Virus record (IMG/VR): IMGVR_UViG_2648501669_000010
Location: 1 to 4,852 of that record
Length of the DNA stretch: 4,852 nt
Direction: 5' to 3' (one strand)
DNA from: a virus
Taxonomy: Duplodnaviria > Heunggongvirae > Uroviricota > Caudoviricetes
Shown: positions 1 through 4,852 of the stretch, piece after piece
Layout of the letters: each line of letters starts with the position of its first letter
How positions within the stretch are numbered: position 1 is the stretch's first letter
Notes under the pieces: model-generated
Seen by the model: only the letters and a program-made list of their open reading frames with translations
What the model was told of the DNA's origin: nothing
Database searches by the model: none
Position numbers and translations under genes: made by a program

Positions 1-49
1 TCGTTCAACACACTGCACAACAAAATCAACCCATATAAGGAAAGCTGAT

Positions 50-571
50 ATGACCACTATTACCAGAGAAAGCGCGGAGATTAAATCATTCATCACTGGT
101 TTCCTGAGCGATCCGGCGCACGATAACCAATCTTCAAACAGCCTGCTTACTAATGTGTTTCGTATCGCACTGGCGTCACTGGAAGCAGAGCCAGTGGCGT
201 GGAAGGCAACCTTCACGCAAATTGACAATGAATATAATACGTTCACTGCTCTGTATTCTGACAAAGCAGAAGTCGAACGGTGGGTGCGATTGCATGAAAT
301 AGGTGACTTTCGGGCAGAAATAACACCGCTTTACGCAGCGCCGTCAGCGCCGGTAATTCCGGATGGTTGGATAAGCTGTAGTGAGCGGATGCCAGAGGAC
401 GGTCAGCACGTAATTATTTTATGTGATGGCGCATTCGTTCTTTATGCGCAATATCGAGACGGTGAGTTTTTTGATGTCGTCCGCAATGGTGAGGAGTTCT
501 TCGAAACGCAGAGCCGCAATGTAACCGACTGGATGCCTCTACCAGAACCGCCGCAGGAGGTGAGTCGATGA
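50..571 (+). CDS. DUF551-domain phage protein (accessory early-region protein of unknown function)
   Basis: 173-aa ORF with ATG at 50 preceded by a purine-rich SD (aaggaaag, 37-44). The C-terminal part (DGWISCSERMPEDG...VTDWMPLPEPP) matches my recollection of the DUF551 signature common in lambdoid prophage nin/early regions. Family assignment is from memory, not a search. Confidence 0.65.
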   Translation: MTTITRESAEIKSFITGFLSDPAHDNQSSNSLLTNVFRIALASLEAEPVAWKATFTQIDNEYNTFTALYSDKAEVERWVRLHEIGDFRAEITPLYAAPSAPVIPDGWISCSERMPEDGQHVIILCDGAFVLYAQYRDGEFFDVVRNGEEFFETQSRNVTDWMPLPEPPQEVSR

Positions 572-614
572 CCTGGCCTGAAGCATTCACAACAATTGCT
601 GCGGGTGCTTGAGG

Positions 615-650
615 CTATCTGCCTCAGGCATGAACACCAACGGCAGATAG
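615..650. repeat. Perfect 9-bp inverted repeat (ctatctgcc / ggcagatag) with 18-nt spacer, between the DUF551 gene and mok
   Basis: Read directly: 615-623 ctatctgcc and 642-650 ggcagatag are exact reverse complements. No T-tract follows on either strand, so this is not an intrinsic terminator. It could be an RNA stem-loop in the hok leader or a dimeric protein-binding site. Confidence 0.5.
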
Positions 651-714
651 AGAAAAGCCCCAGTTAACATTACGCGTCCTGCAAGACGCTTAACATTAAT
701 CTGAGGCTCAATCT

Positions 715-927
715 ATGAACGGCAAATCTAGGTTAGCCTCTTACGTGCCGAAAGGCAAGGAGAAGCAGGCTATGAAGCAGCAAAAGGCGATGTTAGTCGC
801 CCTGATCGTCATCTGTTTAACCGTCATAGTGACGGCACTGGTAACGAGGAAAGACCTCTGTGAGGTACGAATCCGAACCGGCCAGACGGAGGTCGCTGTC
901 TTCACAGCTTACGAACCTGAGGAGTAA
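715..927 (+). CDS. mok: Mok-like reading frame (N-terminally extended form of Hok, modulator of killing)
   Basis: 70-aa ORF in the same frame as hok, starting 57 nt upstream. This is the same architecture as chromosomal mokC/hokC, where Mok is an N-terminal extension of Hok. The extension KGKEKQAMKQQK resembles the MokC extension as I recall it. GAGG at 703-706 sits upstream of ATG 715. Confidence 0.5.
   Translation: MNGKSRLASYVPKGKEKQAMKQQKAMLVALIVICLTVIVTALVTRKDLCEVRIRTGQTEVAVFTAYEPEE
772..927 (+). CDS. hokD: Hok/Gef-family type I toxin (small membrane-depolarising peptide), HokD/RelF-like
   Basis: 51-aa product MKQQKAMLVALIVICLTVIVTALVTRKDLCEVRIRTGQTEVAVFTAYEPEE: one hydrophobic transmembrane helix followed by the conserved Hok periplasmic tail (RKxLCEVRIRTGQTEVAVFTAYE). 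It is almost identical to E. coli HokD/RelF as I recall it. Strong SD AGGAG at 758-762, about 9 nt before ATG 772. Confidence 0.85.
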   Translation: MKQQKAMLVALIVICLTVIVTALVTRKDLCEVRIRTGQTEVAVFTAYEPEE

Positions 928-995
928 GAGACCCGGCGGGGGAGAAATCCCTCGCCACCCCTGATGTGTCAGGCATCCTCAATGCACCCGCACTT

Positions 996-1022
996 AACCC
1001 GCTTCGGCGGGTTTTGTTTTTT
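996..1022 (+). terminator. Rho-independent terminator downstream of hok (3' end of the hok mRNA)
   Basis: GC-rich hairpin cccgc(998-1002)-ttcg-gcggg(1007-1011), extendable by A:T pairs, followed directly by the T-tract ttttgtttttt (1012-1022). Confidence 0.75.
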
Positions 1023-1094
1023 CTGAGCATCCTGGTTTACAATCCACATGCCAGCCTGAACAACTGGCACCTGCTGCGCCAGCAGAGATAGCAG

Positions 1095-1367
1095 ATGGCG
1101 CACAAAACCAAATTTCACAAATCTGATACCGACCTTACCATCCGGCACGGGCGGCGTTCACGCGCATTTAAAACCGACTGGTTCCAGCATGACCCCTGCA
1201 CTGAAGAACAGGCCGAATGGCTGATTCAGAACTACCGCAGACGTGGCTATGAGTTTCAGAAAGACCTCAGTCTTGACTTCCGACACTGGATAATTTCCGT
1301 CAGGCTCCCCTATTCCGAACGCCCACCACGCCCGTCCCGCACATTCCAGCAACGCATCTGGAGGTAA
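1095..1367 (+). CDS. Small basic prophage protein, Rem-like (unknown function)
   Basis: 90-aa ORF rich in Arg/His (predicted basic). Its stop TAA (1365-1367) sits inside the GGAGG...GTG start context of the next gene, indicating translational coupling. Its position between hok and the DUF968 gene mirrors the hokD-rem-ydfU order I recall from the E. coli K-12 Qin prophage. The sequence-level assignment to Rem is from memory and tentative. Confidence 0.5.
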   Translation: MAHKTKFHKSDTDLTIRHGRRSRAFKTDWFQHDPCTEEQAEWLIQNYRRRGYEFQKDLSLDFRHWIISVRLPYSERPPRPSRTFQQRIWR

Positions 1368-1368
1368 C

Positions 1369-2418
1369 GTGCGGGTATTACTTCGACCTGTTCCGGTACC
1401 GGAACTCGGGCTGGTGGTCCTTAAGCCGGGGCGTGAATCCATGCAGGTATTTCATAACCCTCGAGTGCTGGTGGAGCCTGAACCGAAAAGCATGCGCGGG
1501 CTGCCGTCCGGAGTCGTTCCCGCCGTTCGCCAGCCGCTGGCGGAAGACAAATCATTACTGCCATTTTTCAGCGACGAACGGGTGATTCGTGCTGCTGGCG
1601 GTGCTGGAGCACTGTCTGACTGGCTCCTGCGTCATGTTAAATCCTGCCAGTGGCCTCATGGTGATTACCATCACAGCGAAACCGTCATACATCGTTACGG
1701 TACTGGCGCGATGGTGTTGTGCTGGCACTGCGACAACCAGTTGCGTGACCAGACCTCCCAATCACTTGAGCAACTTGCTCACCAAAACCTGTCAGCATGG
1801 ATGATTGACGTCATCCGTCACGCAATGAATGGCACACAGGAGCGGGAATTATCGCTGGCTGAATTATCCTGGTGGGCGGTCTGCAATCAGATGGTGGACG
1901 CACTACCTGAGGCAGTATCGCGTCGTTCACTGGGATTGCCAGCGGAAAAAATCCGCTCGGTGTACCGCGAAAGCGACATCATACCGGGAGAGCAGACAGC
2001 CACCAGCATACTGAAGCAGTGCACAAAAAATATTGCGCTACCACCTCACGCCCACCAGCAACAGAACCCACCACAGGAAAAGACGGTGGTCAGCATTGCC
2101 GTTGATCCGGATTCTCCTGAATCTTTCATGAAGCGACCTAAACGTCGCCGTTGGGTAAATGAGAAATATACGCGCTGGGTGAAGACACAGCCGTGTGCGT
2201 GTTGTGGTAAGCCAGCCGACGATCCCCATCACCTGATTGGTCATGGTCAGGGCGGAATGGGGACAAAAGCCCACGATATTTTCACGTTGCCGCTGTGTCG
2301 GGAACATCACAACGAGCTTCATGCTGATCCGCTGGCGTTCGAAGAAAAGCATGGTTCTCAGGTTGATTTGATTTTTCGTTTTCTTGAACACGCCTTTGCA
2401 ACTGGTGTGCTCGGATAA
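1369..2418 (+). CDS. DUF968-domain protein (YdfU-like) with C-terminal HNH-like zinc-finger/nuclease motif
   Basis: 349-aa ORF starting at GTG 1369 with GGAGG at 1360-1364. The C-terminus carries CACCGKPADDPHHLIGHGQGG...LCREHHNELH, i.e. a CxxC...HH...CxxHH...H arrangement typical of HNH-type metal-binding nuclease folds. Length and position match YdfU of the Qin prophage as I recall it. An alternative start at ATG 1441 is possible. Confidence 0.75.
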   Translation: MRVLLRPVPVPELGLVVLKPGRESMQVFHNPRVLVEPEPKSMRGLPSGVVPAVRQPLAEDKSLLPFFSDERVIRAAGGAGALSDWLLRHVKSCQWPHGDYHHSETVIHRYGTGAMVLCWHCDNQLRDQTSQSLEQLAHQNLSAWMIDVIRHAMNGTQERELSLAELSWWAVCNQMVDALPEAVSRRSLGLPAEKIRSVYRESDIIPGEQTATSILKQCTKNIALPPHAHQQQNPPQEKTVVSIAVDPDSPESFMKRPKRRRWVNEKYTRWVKTQPCACCGKPADDPHHLIGHGQGGMGTKAHDIFTLPLCREHHNELHADPLAFEEKHGSQVDLIFRFLEHAFATGVLG

Positions 2419-2430
2419 AAGAGGTTACTG

Positions 2431-2790
2431 ATGGGGATTGAATTTGTTTTGCCTTACCCGCCGACGGTGAACACCTACTGGCGACGTCGTGGCAGTACAT
2501 ATTTTGTATCAAAAGCCGGTGAGTGTTATCGCCGGGATGTGGCGCTAATTGTTCGCCAGCAGCGACTGAAATTAAACCTGTCCGGAAGGCTGGCAATAAA
2601 AATTACTGCGGAGCCACCGGATAAGCGCCGTCGTGACCTAGACAATATCCTGAAGGCACCGCTGGATGCGCTGACGCATGCTGGACTACTTATAGACGAC
2701 GAGCAGTTTGATGAAATCAATATAGTGCGCGGTTTGCCTGTTCCTGGTGGGCGGCTGGACGTGAAGATTTACAAAATTGAAAGTGAGTGA
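2431..2790 (+). CDS. rusA: Crossover junction endodeoxyribonuclease RusA (Holliday junction resolvase)
   Basis: 119-aa product with clear RusA-family motifs (LPYPPTVNTYW, PDKRRRDLDNILKAPLDALT, GGRLDV), the right length of about 120 aa, and SD AGAGG at 2420-2424 before ATG 2431. It sits in the canonical lambdoid position immediately upstream of Q. Confidence 0.9.
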   Translation: MGIEFVLPYPPTVNTYWRRRGSTYFVSKAGECYRRDVALIVRQQRLKLNLSGRLAIKITAEPPDKRRRDLDNILKAPLDALTHAGLLIDDEQFDEINIVRGLPVPGGRLDVKIYKIESE

Positions 2791-3359
2791 GCGTAAATAT
2801 GATATACCCGGAAATTACAGGCAAAAGCGGTGAGCATTTACGCCTGAAAACGCTGGAAAGTGTCTGGCTCCAGGGAAAACTGCGTATGTGGGGGCGTTGG
2901 TCGTATATTGGCGGCGGTAAGACGGGAAATATGTTCAACCAATTACTGACCTCTAAAAAGCTGACAAAAACGGCAATTAACGAGGCGCTCCGGAGGATGA
3001 AAAAAGCGGGTCTGGACAAACCTGAACTTGAGGCTTTTTTGCGGGATATGATCAACGGCAATCAAAAAAGCTGGCTGGCACATTGTACCGATTCAGAGGC
3101 GTTAATAATCGACAGGGTTATTGGTGAAGCCCTGGCAGGTTATCCCGGGCTGCTCAATGTCCTGAGTCAGCGTTATGTGGGGCGGGGGATGACTAAGCGC
3201 AAAATGGCTGAACTGCTGAATGATGCACACCCGGAATGGAGTTTAAGAACCTGTGAAAGACGCATTGAGCATTGGCTAAAGGTGGCAGAATTTATTTTGT
3301 ACAAACCAATGGTTATGGCTTTTGGTATAGAGAAAAAAAGTTATTGCTTTTTGACGTAA
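2787..3359 (+). CDS. Late-gene antitermination protein Q (phage 82 / QuuD-type family)
   Basis: 190-aa ORF whose GTG start overlaps the rusA stop (gTGA at 2787-2790); an alternative start is ATG 2799. The N-terminal region (LESVWLQGKLRMWGRWSY...NQLLTSKK) resembles the LERWGAW...GLITSK motif I recall in QuuD/phage-82-type Q proteins. Synteny supports it: rusA upstream and an intrinsic terminator just downstream, as expected for Q - PR' - tR'. Confidence 0.7.
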   Translation: MSVNMIYPEITGKSGEHLRLKTLESVWLQGKLRMWGRWSYIGGGKTGNMFNQLLTSKKLTKTAINEALRRMKKAGLDKPELEAFLRDMINGNQKSWLAHCTDSEALIIDRVIGEALAGYPGLLNVLSQRYVGRGMTKRKMAELLNDAHPEWSLRTCERRIEHWLKVAEFILYKPMVMAFGIEKKSYCFLT

Positions 3360-3431
3360 AAACTGCTTCAATTCCGGTACGCTTCGCAAAGCTGTACCGC
3401 GAGGCGAATAGCAGACATGGACATTTGAAAG

Positions 3432-3456
3432 AGCCCGCTTTTTGCGGGTTTTTTTT
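3432..3456 (+). terminator. Rho-independent terminator downstream of Q (candidate tR'-like late terminator)
   Basis: Hairpin cccgc(3434-3438)-ttttt-gcggg(3444-3448) followed by an 8-T tract (3449-3456), about 75 nt after the Q stop codon. In lambdoid phages the late promoter PR' and its Q-antiterminated terminator lie in this position. Confidence 0.7.
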
Positions 3457-3578
3457 ATGCCTGAAAAACGGCACAGAACATTAAACGCGCTAGTGGTTCC
3501 GAATACCGGTCTTTCAGCTTGCTGGCTTTTTCGACAAGAGGTATTGGTATGTCACGTTAACCAGAAAAGGGAAAAGAC

Positions 3579-3776
3579 ATGCTAAAACAGCAGGATATGA
3601 CTGAAACCGCCAGAGTGGTGTTTAATGAATTAAGCGTCACCGAACCGGCGACCGTCGGGGAAATTGCGCAGAATACGTACCTTTCACGCGAACGCTGTCA
3701 GTTAATACTGACCCAGCTTGTTATGGCGGGTCTGGCAGATCATCAGTTCGGTTGTTACAGACGCCTTCCGCAGTGA
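3579..3776 (+). CDS. Small (65 aa) putative winged-helix/HTH DNA-binding protein, hypothetical
   Basis: ORF with a purine-rich upstream stretch (aaagggaaaag) before ATG 3579. The segment PATVGEIAQNTYLSRERCQLILTQLVMAGL has the spacing and hydrophobic pattern of a helix-turn-helix recognition unit. No family is recognised from memory. Codon pattern looks coding, but the call rests on ORF plus motif only. Confidence 0.45.
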   Translation: MLKQQDMTETARVVFNELSVTEPATVGEIAQNTYLSRERCQLILTQLVMAGLADHQFGCYRRLPQ

Positions 3777-3831
3777 AGGCTTTTTAATTTGTGGTAATGG
3801 GCGGCTGGTGGGTGTTAGCGGCACCTGCCAG

Positions 3832-3880
3832 CCATCTGCTCATGCGTTGGGGTCACAAGCAAACCTCAGGCCCATCTGCT
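3832..3880. repeat. Two copies of 9-bp direct repeat ccatctgct (3832-3840 and 3872-3880), 40 bp apart, in the spacer upstream of the methyltransferase gene
   Basis: Read directly from the sequence. Both copies are followed within a few bases by tgcg. A 40-bp spacing is about four helical turns. This could be chance (rough expectation of a few percent in a 150-bp spacer) or paired binding sites. Confidence 0.35.
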
Positions 3881-3926
3881 TTGCGCAAAAGCGGTATGAG
3901 CCTATCAGAGAAGTGCTTATTGATCT

Positions 3927-4852
3927 ATGGTTAATACTGTAAAAATATCCAGTTGTGAGTTAATCAACGCTGATTGCCTGGAATTTATCCAGACCTTGCC
4001 GGAAAACTCTGTCGATCTGATAGTCACAGACCCGCCATACTTTAAAGTGAAGCCCGAAGGCTGGGATAACCAGTGGAAGGGCGACGATGATTACCTGAAA
4101 TGGCTGGATCAGTGTCTGGCGCAATTCTGGCGGGTACTGAAACCTGCCGGAAGTCTCTACCTGTTCTGTGGTCATCGCCTGGCATCTGATATCGAAATCA
4201 TGATGCGTCAGCGCTTTAATGTGCTGAACCACATTATCTGGGCGAAGCCGTCCGGACGCTGGAACGGATGCAACAAGGAAAGCCTGCGGGCGTATTTCCC
4301 GGCAACAGAACGCATTCTGTTTGCGGAACATTATCAGGGGCCATACCAGCCCAAAAATGACGGCTATGCGGCAAAGGGGCGCGAGCTAAAACAGCACGTC
4401 ATGGCCCCGCTGATTTCTTACTTTCGTGATGCGCGTGAATCACTGGGGGTAACATCGAAACAGATAGCGGAAGCCACCGGAAAGAAAAACATGGCGTCAC
4501 ACTGGTTTGGTACCAGTCAGTGGCAGTTGCCGAACGAGGGTGATTACAGAAAACTGCAGGTGTTATTTGCACGTGTAGCGGCAGAAAAGCATCAGCGCGG
4601 AGAACTGGAAAAACCACATCACCAGCTGGTCAGCGCATACAGTGAACTGAACCGGCAATATGCCAGTCTGCTGGATGAATACAAATCACTGCGGCGTTAT
4701 TTTTCCGTATCAGCTGCAGTGCCGTATACGGATGTCTGGACGCACAAGCCCGTGCAGTATTATCCGGGCAAACATCCCTGCGAAAAACCGGCGGATATGT
4801 TGCGGCAGATAATAGAGGCCAGCAGTCACCCTGGTGATTTGGTTGCGGATTT
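3927..4852 (+). CDS. DNA methyltransferase, beta-class (N6-adenine or N4-cytosine), 3'-truncated by window end
   Basis: Open frame from ATG 3927 to the window end with no stop (308 codons); the six-frame track omits it only because it is unterminated. The N-terminus NADCLEFIQTLPENSVDLIVTDPPY carries the catalytic motif IV (DPPY) of amino-methyltransferases, followed by a conserved-looking core (LKPAGSLYLFCG). Motif IV lying N-terminal to the AdoMet-binding motif I (expected beyond 4852) defines the beta-class arrangement. A weak SD before ATG 3927 makes the exact start uncertain. Confidence 0.85.
   Translation, partial: MVNTVKISSCELINADCLEFIQTLPENSVDLIVTDPPYFKVKPEGWDNQWKGDDDYLKWLDQCLAQFWRVLKPAGSLYLFCGHRLASDIEIMMRQRFNVLNHIIWAKPSGRWNGCNKESLRAYFPATERILFAEHYQGPYQPKNDGYAAKGRELKQHVMAPLISYFRDARESLGVTSKQIAEATGKKNMASHWFGTSQWQLPNEGDYRKLQVLFARVAAEKHQRGELEKPHHQLVSAYSELNRQYASLLDEYKSLRRYFSVSAAVPYTDVWTHKPVQYYPGKHPCEKPADMLRQIIEASSHPGDLVAD

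Follow-up and report, generated by a model that had tools for sequence, protein, structure and literature searches.

A conserved cassette of a small basic protein gene, a YdfU-type DUF968 gene with an HNH domain, and rusA in the nin region of lambdoid prophages

The stretch of DNA analysed here, called the window, comprises all 4,852 nucleotides (nt) of positions 1 to 4,852 of IMG/VR virus record IMGVR_UViG_2648501669_000010 (Caudoviricetes). It is a nin-to-Q segment of a lambdoid prophage in which every gene is located on the plus strand, and it contains a gene for a small basic protein, a gene for a DUF968 protein of the YdfU type, and rusA. This cassette is best explained as a conserved delayed-early DNA-processing unit of the lambdoid nin region, located between the replication genes and the Q antiterminator. 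It appears moderately likely that the unit is a co-translated module whose HNH nickase or endonuclease acts with RusA in phage recombination or replication, possibly stimulated by RecA. The cassette has the following parts:

1095-1367, plus strand, gene for the small basic protein of 90 amino acids, PHROG 1212 (open reading frame)
1360-1371, plus strand, coupling junction: GGAGG at 1360-1364 in codons Trp89-Arg90, TAA at 1365-1367, c at 1368, GTG at 1369-1371
1369-2418, plus strand, YdfU-type DUF968 gene, 349 amino acids, PHROG 96 (Pfam DUF968 and phrog_96 matches)
1369-2043, plus strand, N-terminal region of DUF968, residues 1-225 (predicted secondary structure)
1645-1737, plus strand, N-terminal Cys/His cluster of DUF968, residues 93-123 (predicted beta-hairpin and helix)
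2044-2097, plus strand, predicted disordered linker of DUF968, residues 226-243, rich in His, Gln and Pro (predicted local distance difference test score, pLDDT, below 50; variable length in the family alignment)
2161-2403, plus strand, C-terminal HNH (beta-beta-alpha-metal) domain of DUF968, residues about 265-345
2431-2790, plus strand, rusA, Holliday-junction resolvase (Pfam RusA, E 2.1e-15; 12 nt 3' of the DUF968 gene)

The last two sense codons of the small open reading frame (ORF), TGG-AGG for Trp-Arg, encode the GGAGG Shine-Dalgarno sequence of the DUF968 gene. The arrangement GGAGG-TAA-c-GTG described in the initial annotation is present exactly as stated, and it is widely kept. In all 83 Escherichia-type junctions compared, TAA ends one base before the GTG of DUF968, and GGAGG is found in 81 of them. 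A search that started from the small gene added 80 viral contigs, of which 77 have DUF968 equally spaced; of the three remaining loci, one lies at a contig edge, and in two a rearrangement follows after no more than about 30 nt of DUF968. Altogether, the design is present in about 160 Escherichia-type loci. This conservation is more than chance. The two genes thus show what is expected of a coupled pair, being on the same strand, with a stop few nucleotides from the next start, a Shine-Dalgarno sequence inside the upstream ORF, and a conserved arrangement. A comparable ending was seen in more distant relatives of the small protein, which were found in nine loci outside Escherichia. All nine end with W-(R/G), specified by TGG-RGG, after which come the stop codon and, at a distance of 4-6 nt, the start of another gene. 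This following gene is DUF968 in Klebsiella and rusA, followed by DUF968, in the other seven; rusA in this position was confirmed by Pfam for one of them, locus L090. Since the Shine-Dalgarno sequence in the last codons is kept in distant homologs whichever gene comes next, it is a property of the small-gene family, and such a family-wide coupling rule argues for co-translation with the whole module and not with DUF968 specifically.

As claimed initially, the small protein of 90 residues is basic, with a calculated isoelectric point of 10.4 and 19 Lys and Arg residues versus 11 Asp and Glu residues. Its residues 25-90 match phrog_1212 over all 66 profile positions (1-66; E 3.9e-37), a family of unknown function in PHROGs. 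Neither Pfam nor NCBIfam yielded a match, sequence and profile searches of the PDB were empty, and a word-indexed search of 5.8 billion proteins revealed relatives only in Escherichia and Shigella, all of them unnamed. The small ORF is a real gene under purifying selection in its own frame. The pairwise ratio of nonsynonymous to synonymous substitution rates (dN/dS) is 0.21 overall, 0.12 in the conserved core, and 0.46 in the first 30 columns, while among the other five frames it exceeds 1 in four and is 0.31 in one antisense frame. An intact ORF of 90 or 92 amino acids is present in 81 of the 83 Escherichia-type junctions, starting with ATG in 77 and with GTG in four; of the other two, one is truncated where the contig ends, and one is an incomplete duplicate with N in its sequence. 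In the AlphaFold2 model (pLDDT 69.5; core about 85), residues 1-21 are predicted to be disordered and the core, residues 25-90, adopts a beta-alpha-beta-beta order with a C-terminal helix. The homologs in the nine distant loci, from Citrobacter, Scandinavium, Enterobacter, Atlantibacter, Pluralibacter, Buttiauxella, and Klebsiella, have 66-67 residues and 38-49% identity; they lack the variable N-terminal 25 residues, and ten residues of the 66-residue core are invariant across genera. Overall, the small protein diverges faster than the nuclease, with a mean p-distance of 0.25 versus 0.04-0.10.

In Escherichia coli K-12, the homolog of the small gene is an unannotated ORF of 92 amino acids in the Qin prophage, located between rem (b1561) and ydfU (b1560) on the minus strand (NC_000913.3, 1644306-1644584; 3307-3585 in our locus L002), and separated from the GTG of ydfU by the same one-base gap. 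The MG1655 RefSeq entry has no coding sequence here, whereas in other genomes, including a K-12 derivative, the NCBI annotation pipeline PGAP predicts a hypothetical protein. The label "Rem-like" given to the small protein in the initial annotation has to be withdrawn. BLASTP against K-12 Rem yielded no alignment at E <= 100, and rem is a separate gene upstream of the 92-residue homolog. The only likeness of Rem is its place between hokD and ydfU in Qin, and it is absent from the window. NinE, the positional analogue in the DLP12 prophage, was also rejected as a relative of the small protein, as no similarity was detected.

The assignment of the second gene to DUF968 was confirmed by profile search. 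Residues 160-346 of the product match Pfam DUF968 (PF06147) with E 2e-76 and 256.3 bits, the cutoff being 27.8. The full-length protein matches phrog_96, named HNH endonuclease (E 5.9e-175), and Pfam HNHc_6 aligned to residues 271-319 with 22 bits, which is below its cutoff. An exhaustive HMMER search revealed 3171 representative DUF968 proteins at E <= 0.001, and full-length relatives reach down to about 30% identity across Enterobacterales. The start position is common to homologs in other genera, as ATG, GTG, or TTG. For the gene as a whole dN/dS is 0.10, and the HNH region is its most strongly constrained part (0.054).

At its C-terminus, DUF968 ends in a complete HNH/His-Me finger of 85 residues, which includes a CCCH zinc site and a His/Asp/His/His set. 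An alignment of 27 sequences defined the motif WVKxQPCxxCGxxADDPHHxIGHGxGGMGxKAHDxFxxPLCRxCHxxLH. The Cys/His cluster noticed initially is contained in it, represented in the window protein by C276, C279, H287, H288, D303, C310, H313, H314, and H318. We propose C276, C279, C310, and H313 as zinc ligands and H288, D303 (in the Asn position), H314, and H318 as the catalytic set. The latter four are invariant in alignment A2 and aligned with H157, H185, and H189 of Gp16 from Staphylococcus phage PhiNM1. In three of the 27 family representatives (P0316, P0333, and P0368) the His-His pair is missing. Structure prediction, which had been suggested for the C-terminus, supports the same view: the AlphaFold2 model (pLDDT 85.8) places strands at 285-288 and 306-309 and a helix at 311-319, the beta-beta-alpha-metal core of the HNH/His-Me finger superfamily.

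Gp16 is the closest characterised relative of DUF968. It was taken to be ABF73046, the 16th coding sequence, in which the residue numbers also match. Gp16 is described as an early HNH nickase that binds RecA, is stimulated by it, and is needed for phage DNA replication (PMC12817073, published in 2026). The protein belongs to Pfam HNHc_6 and is also just above the DUF968 threshold. Its HNH domain is homologous to residues 273-328 of the window protein (39% identity over 59 residues, BLASTP E 1e-9, hhalign probability 94%). The motif LCREHHNE is identical in both, and all seven Gp16 residues mutated in PMC12817073 are conserved in the window protein. Both belong to the early genes of their phages, and RusA is encoded in both genomes; a coupled small gene was not noted for Gp16.

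Further comparisons place the cassette among known systems. YdfU of K-12 has the same 349 residues, 86% identity, the same start context, a coupled small ORF upstream, and hok upstream; Qin differs by the loss of rusA and by the presence of rem, which separates hok from the small ORF. The DUF968 family has been classed as His-Me finger group 7 with RusA/Q neighbours (PMC5714182). YbcO (DUF1364, PDB 3g27) is related to the DUF968 HNH domain with an hhalign probability of 86%; with 96 residues and no N-terminal region, it is the counterpart of the C-terminal domain alone. In the DLP12 prophage of K-12 (2422-3234 in our locus L244), ninE, ybcO, and rusA form an analogous string with overlaps of 8 and 4 nt, an order found in DLP12 and phage 82; NinE is unrelated to the small protein of the window. 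NinG/Rap of lambda (His-Me finger group 24) is a functional analogue, a recombination nuclease of the HNH superfamily whose gene lies in the nin region as well (PMC4118853, PMC5714182), between the replication genes and Q as is DUF968 here. It belongs to a different family, without a Pfam NinG match in the window protein, and lambda lacks RusA. Finally, P1 Ref is a RecA-dependent HNH nuclease (PMC4330346, PMC3973344), and the resemblance of DUF968 to it (PDB 3plw) is structural only. Ref carries a basic, disordered N-terminus of 76 residues on the same chain, whereas the N-terminal region of DUF968 is predicted to be folded and the only basic disordered segment predicted in the cassette is on the separate small protein.

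The N-terminal 225 residues of DUF968 are predicted to consist of a beta-rich start, helices, a Cys/His knuckle, and a helical bundle. Sequence and profile searches of the PDB yielded no significant match of this region to a solved structure or known family; phrog_11007 spans residues 2-135. A NinB/Orf/YbcN-like domain, as in Gram-positive DUF968/HNHc_6 proteins, was considered and rejected for want of similarity. The cluster C93-Q...H101-H102...C118-W-H-C121-D-N, with a predicted beta-hairpin at 105-118 and a helix at 119-125, corresponds to the family motif CQ...Y[CH]H...LCWH[HC]DN. Among 27 homologs with 26-83% identity, C93 and C118 are invariant, and Q94, W119, and D122 are at least 90% conserved. 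The cluster is probably a zinc knuckle, and it is possibly a degenerate second HNH-like unit; it can be aligned with HNH domains without a shift in register, but the scores fall short of significance (hhalign P 0.17; BLASTP E 0.1 with the HNH domain of Gp16). In several database entries (P0245, P0265, P0293, P0309, P0311, and P0373) the N-terminal region appears fused to tail-fibre, tail-tip, portal, or capsid domains. Most likely these are deletions in decaying prophages or misassemblies and are uninformative.

Distances between small-gene alleles track those of DUF968 residues 1-160 (rho 0.4) but not those of residues 161-349 (rho about 0). The pattern points to a mosaic breakpoint within DUF968 at window position about 1848 (residue about 160), with the small gene and residues 1-160 inherited together and residues 161-349 independently; the loci concerned are L015, L016, L019, L020, L023, L025, and L057. 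The correlation is thus accounted for by linkage and a mosaic breakpoint and is no evidence of co-evolution.

The DUF968 gene has a constant syntenic place: in about 240 loci, it is found in the early nin region beside rusA and Q. The resolvase gene, directly upstream of which DUF968 had been placed initially, indeed follows after 12 nt with its own Shine-Dalgarno sequence, AAGAGG, as the third gene of the module, and it follows DUF968 in 71 of the 80 loci found from the small gene. In loci from other species, RusA is encoded within 3 kilobases (kb) of DUF968 in 56 of 80, usually upstream, and across Enterobacterales the linkage occurs in either order. Genes for KilA-N or Rha/ANT antirepressors are often located between the two in these species; in many genera (L090-L162) the order is rusA, a KilA-N or Rha/ANT antirepressor-like gene of 230-300 amino acids, and DUF968. 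In other Enterobacterales, DUF968 and the gene before it often share bases at their junction, start and stop overlapping as ATGA or GTGA. DNA matching the cassette is present in 4549 of 5426 complete E. coli genomes, with up to nine copies per genome, and the cassette is also carried by functional lambdoid and Shiga toxin (Stx)-converting phages. The complete E. coli genome closest to the window is about 94% identical; in E. coli NZ_CP182387, PGAP calls the same gene string, with a "hypothetical protein" and a "DUF968 domain-containing protein" separated by 1 nt.

Around the cassette, the window contains the following elements:

50-571, plus strand, DUF551 gene, first of the gene string
603-1022, complete hok/sok-type toxin-antitoxin locus, directly 5' of the cassette
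603-777, sok RNA (Rfam match, 108.7 bits)
ending at 927, plus strand, Hok/Gef coding sequence, part of the hok/sok locus
996-1013, intrinsic terminator followed by a T-run, after hok (terminator scan)
2787-3359, plus strand, Q-like DUF1133 antiterminator gene, 3' of rusA
3' of the Q-like gene, plus strand, a small TrmB-like gene and then a DNA methyltransferase gene

If GTG at 2787 is the start, the Q-like ORF overlaps the rusA stop; in a related genome PGAP places the start at the position corresponding to ATG 2799, and this Met is also the first residue of the Pfam match. Just 3' of this gene, at 3434-3456, a stem-loop CCCGC-TTTTT-GCGGG followed by eight T was seen by eye. It is located where a tR'-type terminator is expected, and the consensus scan did not list it. 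For the cassette itself, a promoter scan revealed nothing above chance.

Taken together, the following course of events would be consistent with these data; the linkage with rusA, the analogous DLP12 string, and the strong Rho-dependent terminator upstream of ydfU in K-12 (PMC9160355) also count in its favour. The cassette, which probably lacks its own promoter and is positioned after the hok terminator, would be expressed only when early transcription is antiterminated. Ribosomes that reach the end of the small ORF would reinitiate on DUF968, and both proteins would consequently be made together. DUF968 may be a metal-dependent DNA nickase or endonuclease that makes or processes recombination or replication intermediates such as D-loops and forks, and by analogy with P1 Ref and PhiNM1 Gp16 it might be stimulated by RecA or a phage recombinase. 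RusA would then resolve the junctions left behind. The N-terminal 225 residues with their invariant Cys pair could recognise a DNA structure or a partner. In the least certain step, the small basic protein would serve as an accessory or regulatory factor of the module.

A number of observations weigh against such a module. A hairpin burying the Shine-Dalgarno sequence and GTG is predicted in all 28 junction variants, but it is no better than in synonymous recodings of the same peptide, which were at least as good as the native sequence in 311 of 400 cases for pairing of the Shine-Dalgarno sequence and in 113 of 400 for pairing of the start. RNA structure therefore adds no evidence for coupling, and this hairpin was rejected as an argument. 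Outside Escherichia, most DUF968 loci have no small-gene homolog within 3 kb. Among the 80 loci from other species, only seven of the Escherichia/Shigella type and nine from six other genera have one, and in seven of these nine the small gene is separated from DUF968 by rusA, which leaves a specific partnership of the two proteins putative. In addition, a small-protein allele only 38% identical to that of the window is found beside a DUF968 protein of about 93% identity. Regarding the nuclease, DUF968 had no match in the PDB by sequence or profile, and Foldseek against the PDB gave none that was significant (best E 0.39), though HNH domains ranked at the top. The window protein is below the gathering threshold of HNHc_6 (PF16784), the family of Gp16, and does not match RecA_dep_nuc (PF16786), the family of Ref, at E <= 0.01. 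The N-terminus of Gp16 is NinB/Orf-like, while DUF968 has 225 unrelated residues with a Cys/His knuckle. For these reasons, RecA dependence is an analogy only. In 2024, ydfU was still counted among the uncharacterised genes (PMC11551758). The initial annotation overstated the novelty of the nuclease: that DUF968 is of the HNH kind, that it clusters with DUF1364/YbcO, and that RusA and Q are its neighbours was published in 2014 and 2017 (PMC4118853, PMC5714182), and PHROGs had already given phrog_96 its name.

Several other explanations have to be considered. DUF968 could be a nuclease for host takeover that mainly damages or nicks host DNA and so arrests host replication, as PhiNM1 Gp16 does, with the small protein as a dosing or inhibitory, antitoxin-like partner. 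Overexpression of Gp16 inhibits growth of the host and suppresses its DNA replication (PMC12817073), and in K-12 a strong Rho-dependent terminator is located upstream of ydfU, such terminators being described as necessary to suppress toxic prophage genes (PMC9160355). Moreover, a small gene that comes first and is coupled resembles the layout of type II toxin-antitoxin systems, and the faster evolution of the small protein would also fit. Yet the genes do not show the obligate co-occurrence of a toxin-antitoxin or nuclease-immunity pair, given the many DUF968 genes of other genera without a nearby small gene and the intervening rusA, seen in five genera. One DUF968 type tolerates small-protein alleles that are 38% identical to each other. 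No toxin-antitoxin family was matched, and with PADLOC only a chance-level PglZ hit was obtained; NCBIfam also gave no match for DUF968. An anti-host function is thus rather unlikely, and it is not mutually exclusive with a role in recombination. That the C-terminal domain is a non-catalytic zinc finger, and DUF968 a DNA-binding regulator or scaffold, is very unlikely, since every catalytic and zinc position is present in the window protein, constraint on the gene is strongest in the HNH region, and the structural neighbours are active nucleases. The absence of the His-His pair from three representatives, the annotation of some family members as regulators (PMC5714182), and the growth inhibition still caused by Gp16 H157A (PMC12817073) speak for it.

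The small ORF might also be a mere translated leader delivering ribosomes to DUF968 or rusA, its peptide having no function. With a core kept across genera, a core dN/dS of 0.12, and a confident core model, there is little reason to expect this. A selfish homing HNH endonuclease or a terminase-associated packaging HNH protein is extremely improbable. Many phage HNH genes are of these two kinds (introduction of PMC12817073), but DUF968 has a fixed place by rusA and Q, is neither near a terminase gene nor inside a gene or intron, and possesses a conserved additional N-terminal region of 225 residues.

The DNA-processing module could be more specialised than outlined above. The PHROG 1212 protein might be a dedicated subunit of a nuclease-resolvase machine that directs the YdfU HNH nickase to recombination intermediates or gates it there, and perhaps does the same for RusA, supplying in trans the basic disordered DNA-binding arm that Ref has in cis; YdfU would then be a two-module protein with a degenerate N-terminal HNH-like knuckle reading DNA structure. 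This proposal is speculative and distinctly unlikely in its entirety.

The cassette is ordinary in kind and contains nothing surprising to a specialist. The value of the analysis is that the record has been tidied: the Rem label is corrected, the small-gene family and its coupling rule are defined, and the closest characterised relatives are named. Few prophage modules are more common in E. coli than this cassette, yet ydfU remains part of the "y-ome", and its coupled partner has no annotation in the K-12 reference. The work on Gp16 from 2026 supplies a testable hypothesis, DUF968 as a RecA-stimulated nickase promoting phage DNA replication. If this is true, it would explain why the HNH gene travels with rusA across Enterobacterales and could bear on prophage induction, recombination between prophages, and SOS or antibiotic synergy, as was demonstrated for P1 Ref. 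Should the small protein be a dedicated subunit, most E. coli genomes would encode a new nuclease system directed by RecA or a recombinase, including an unannotated gene of K-12.

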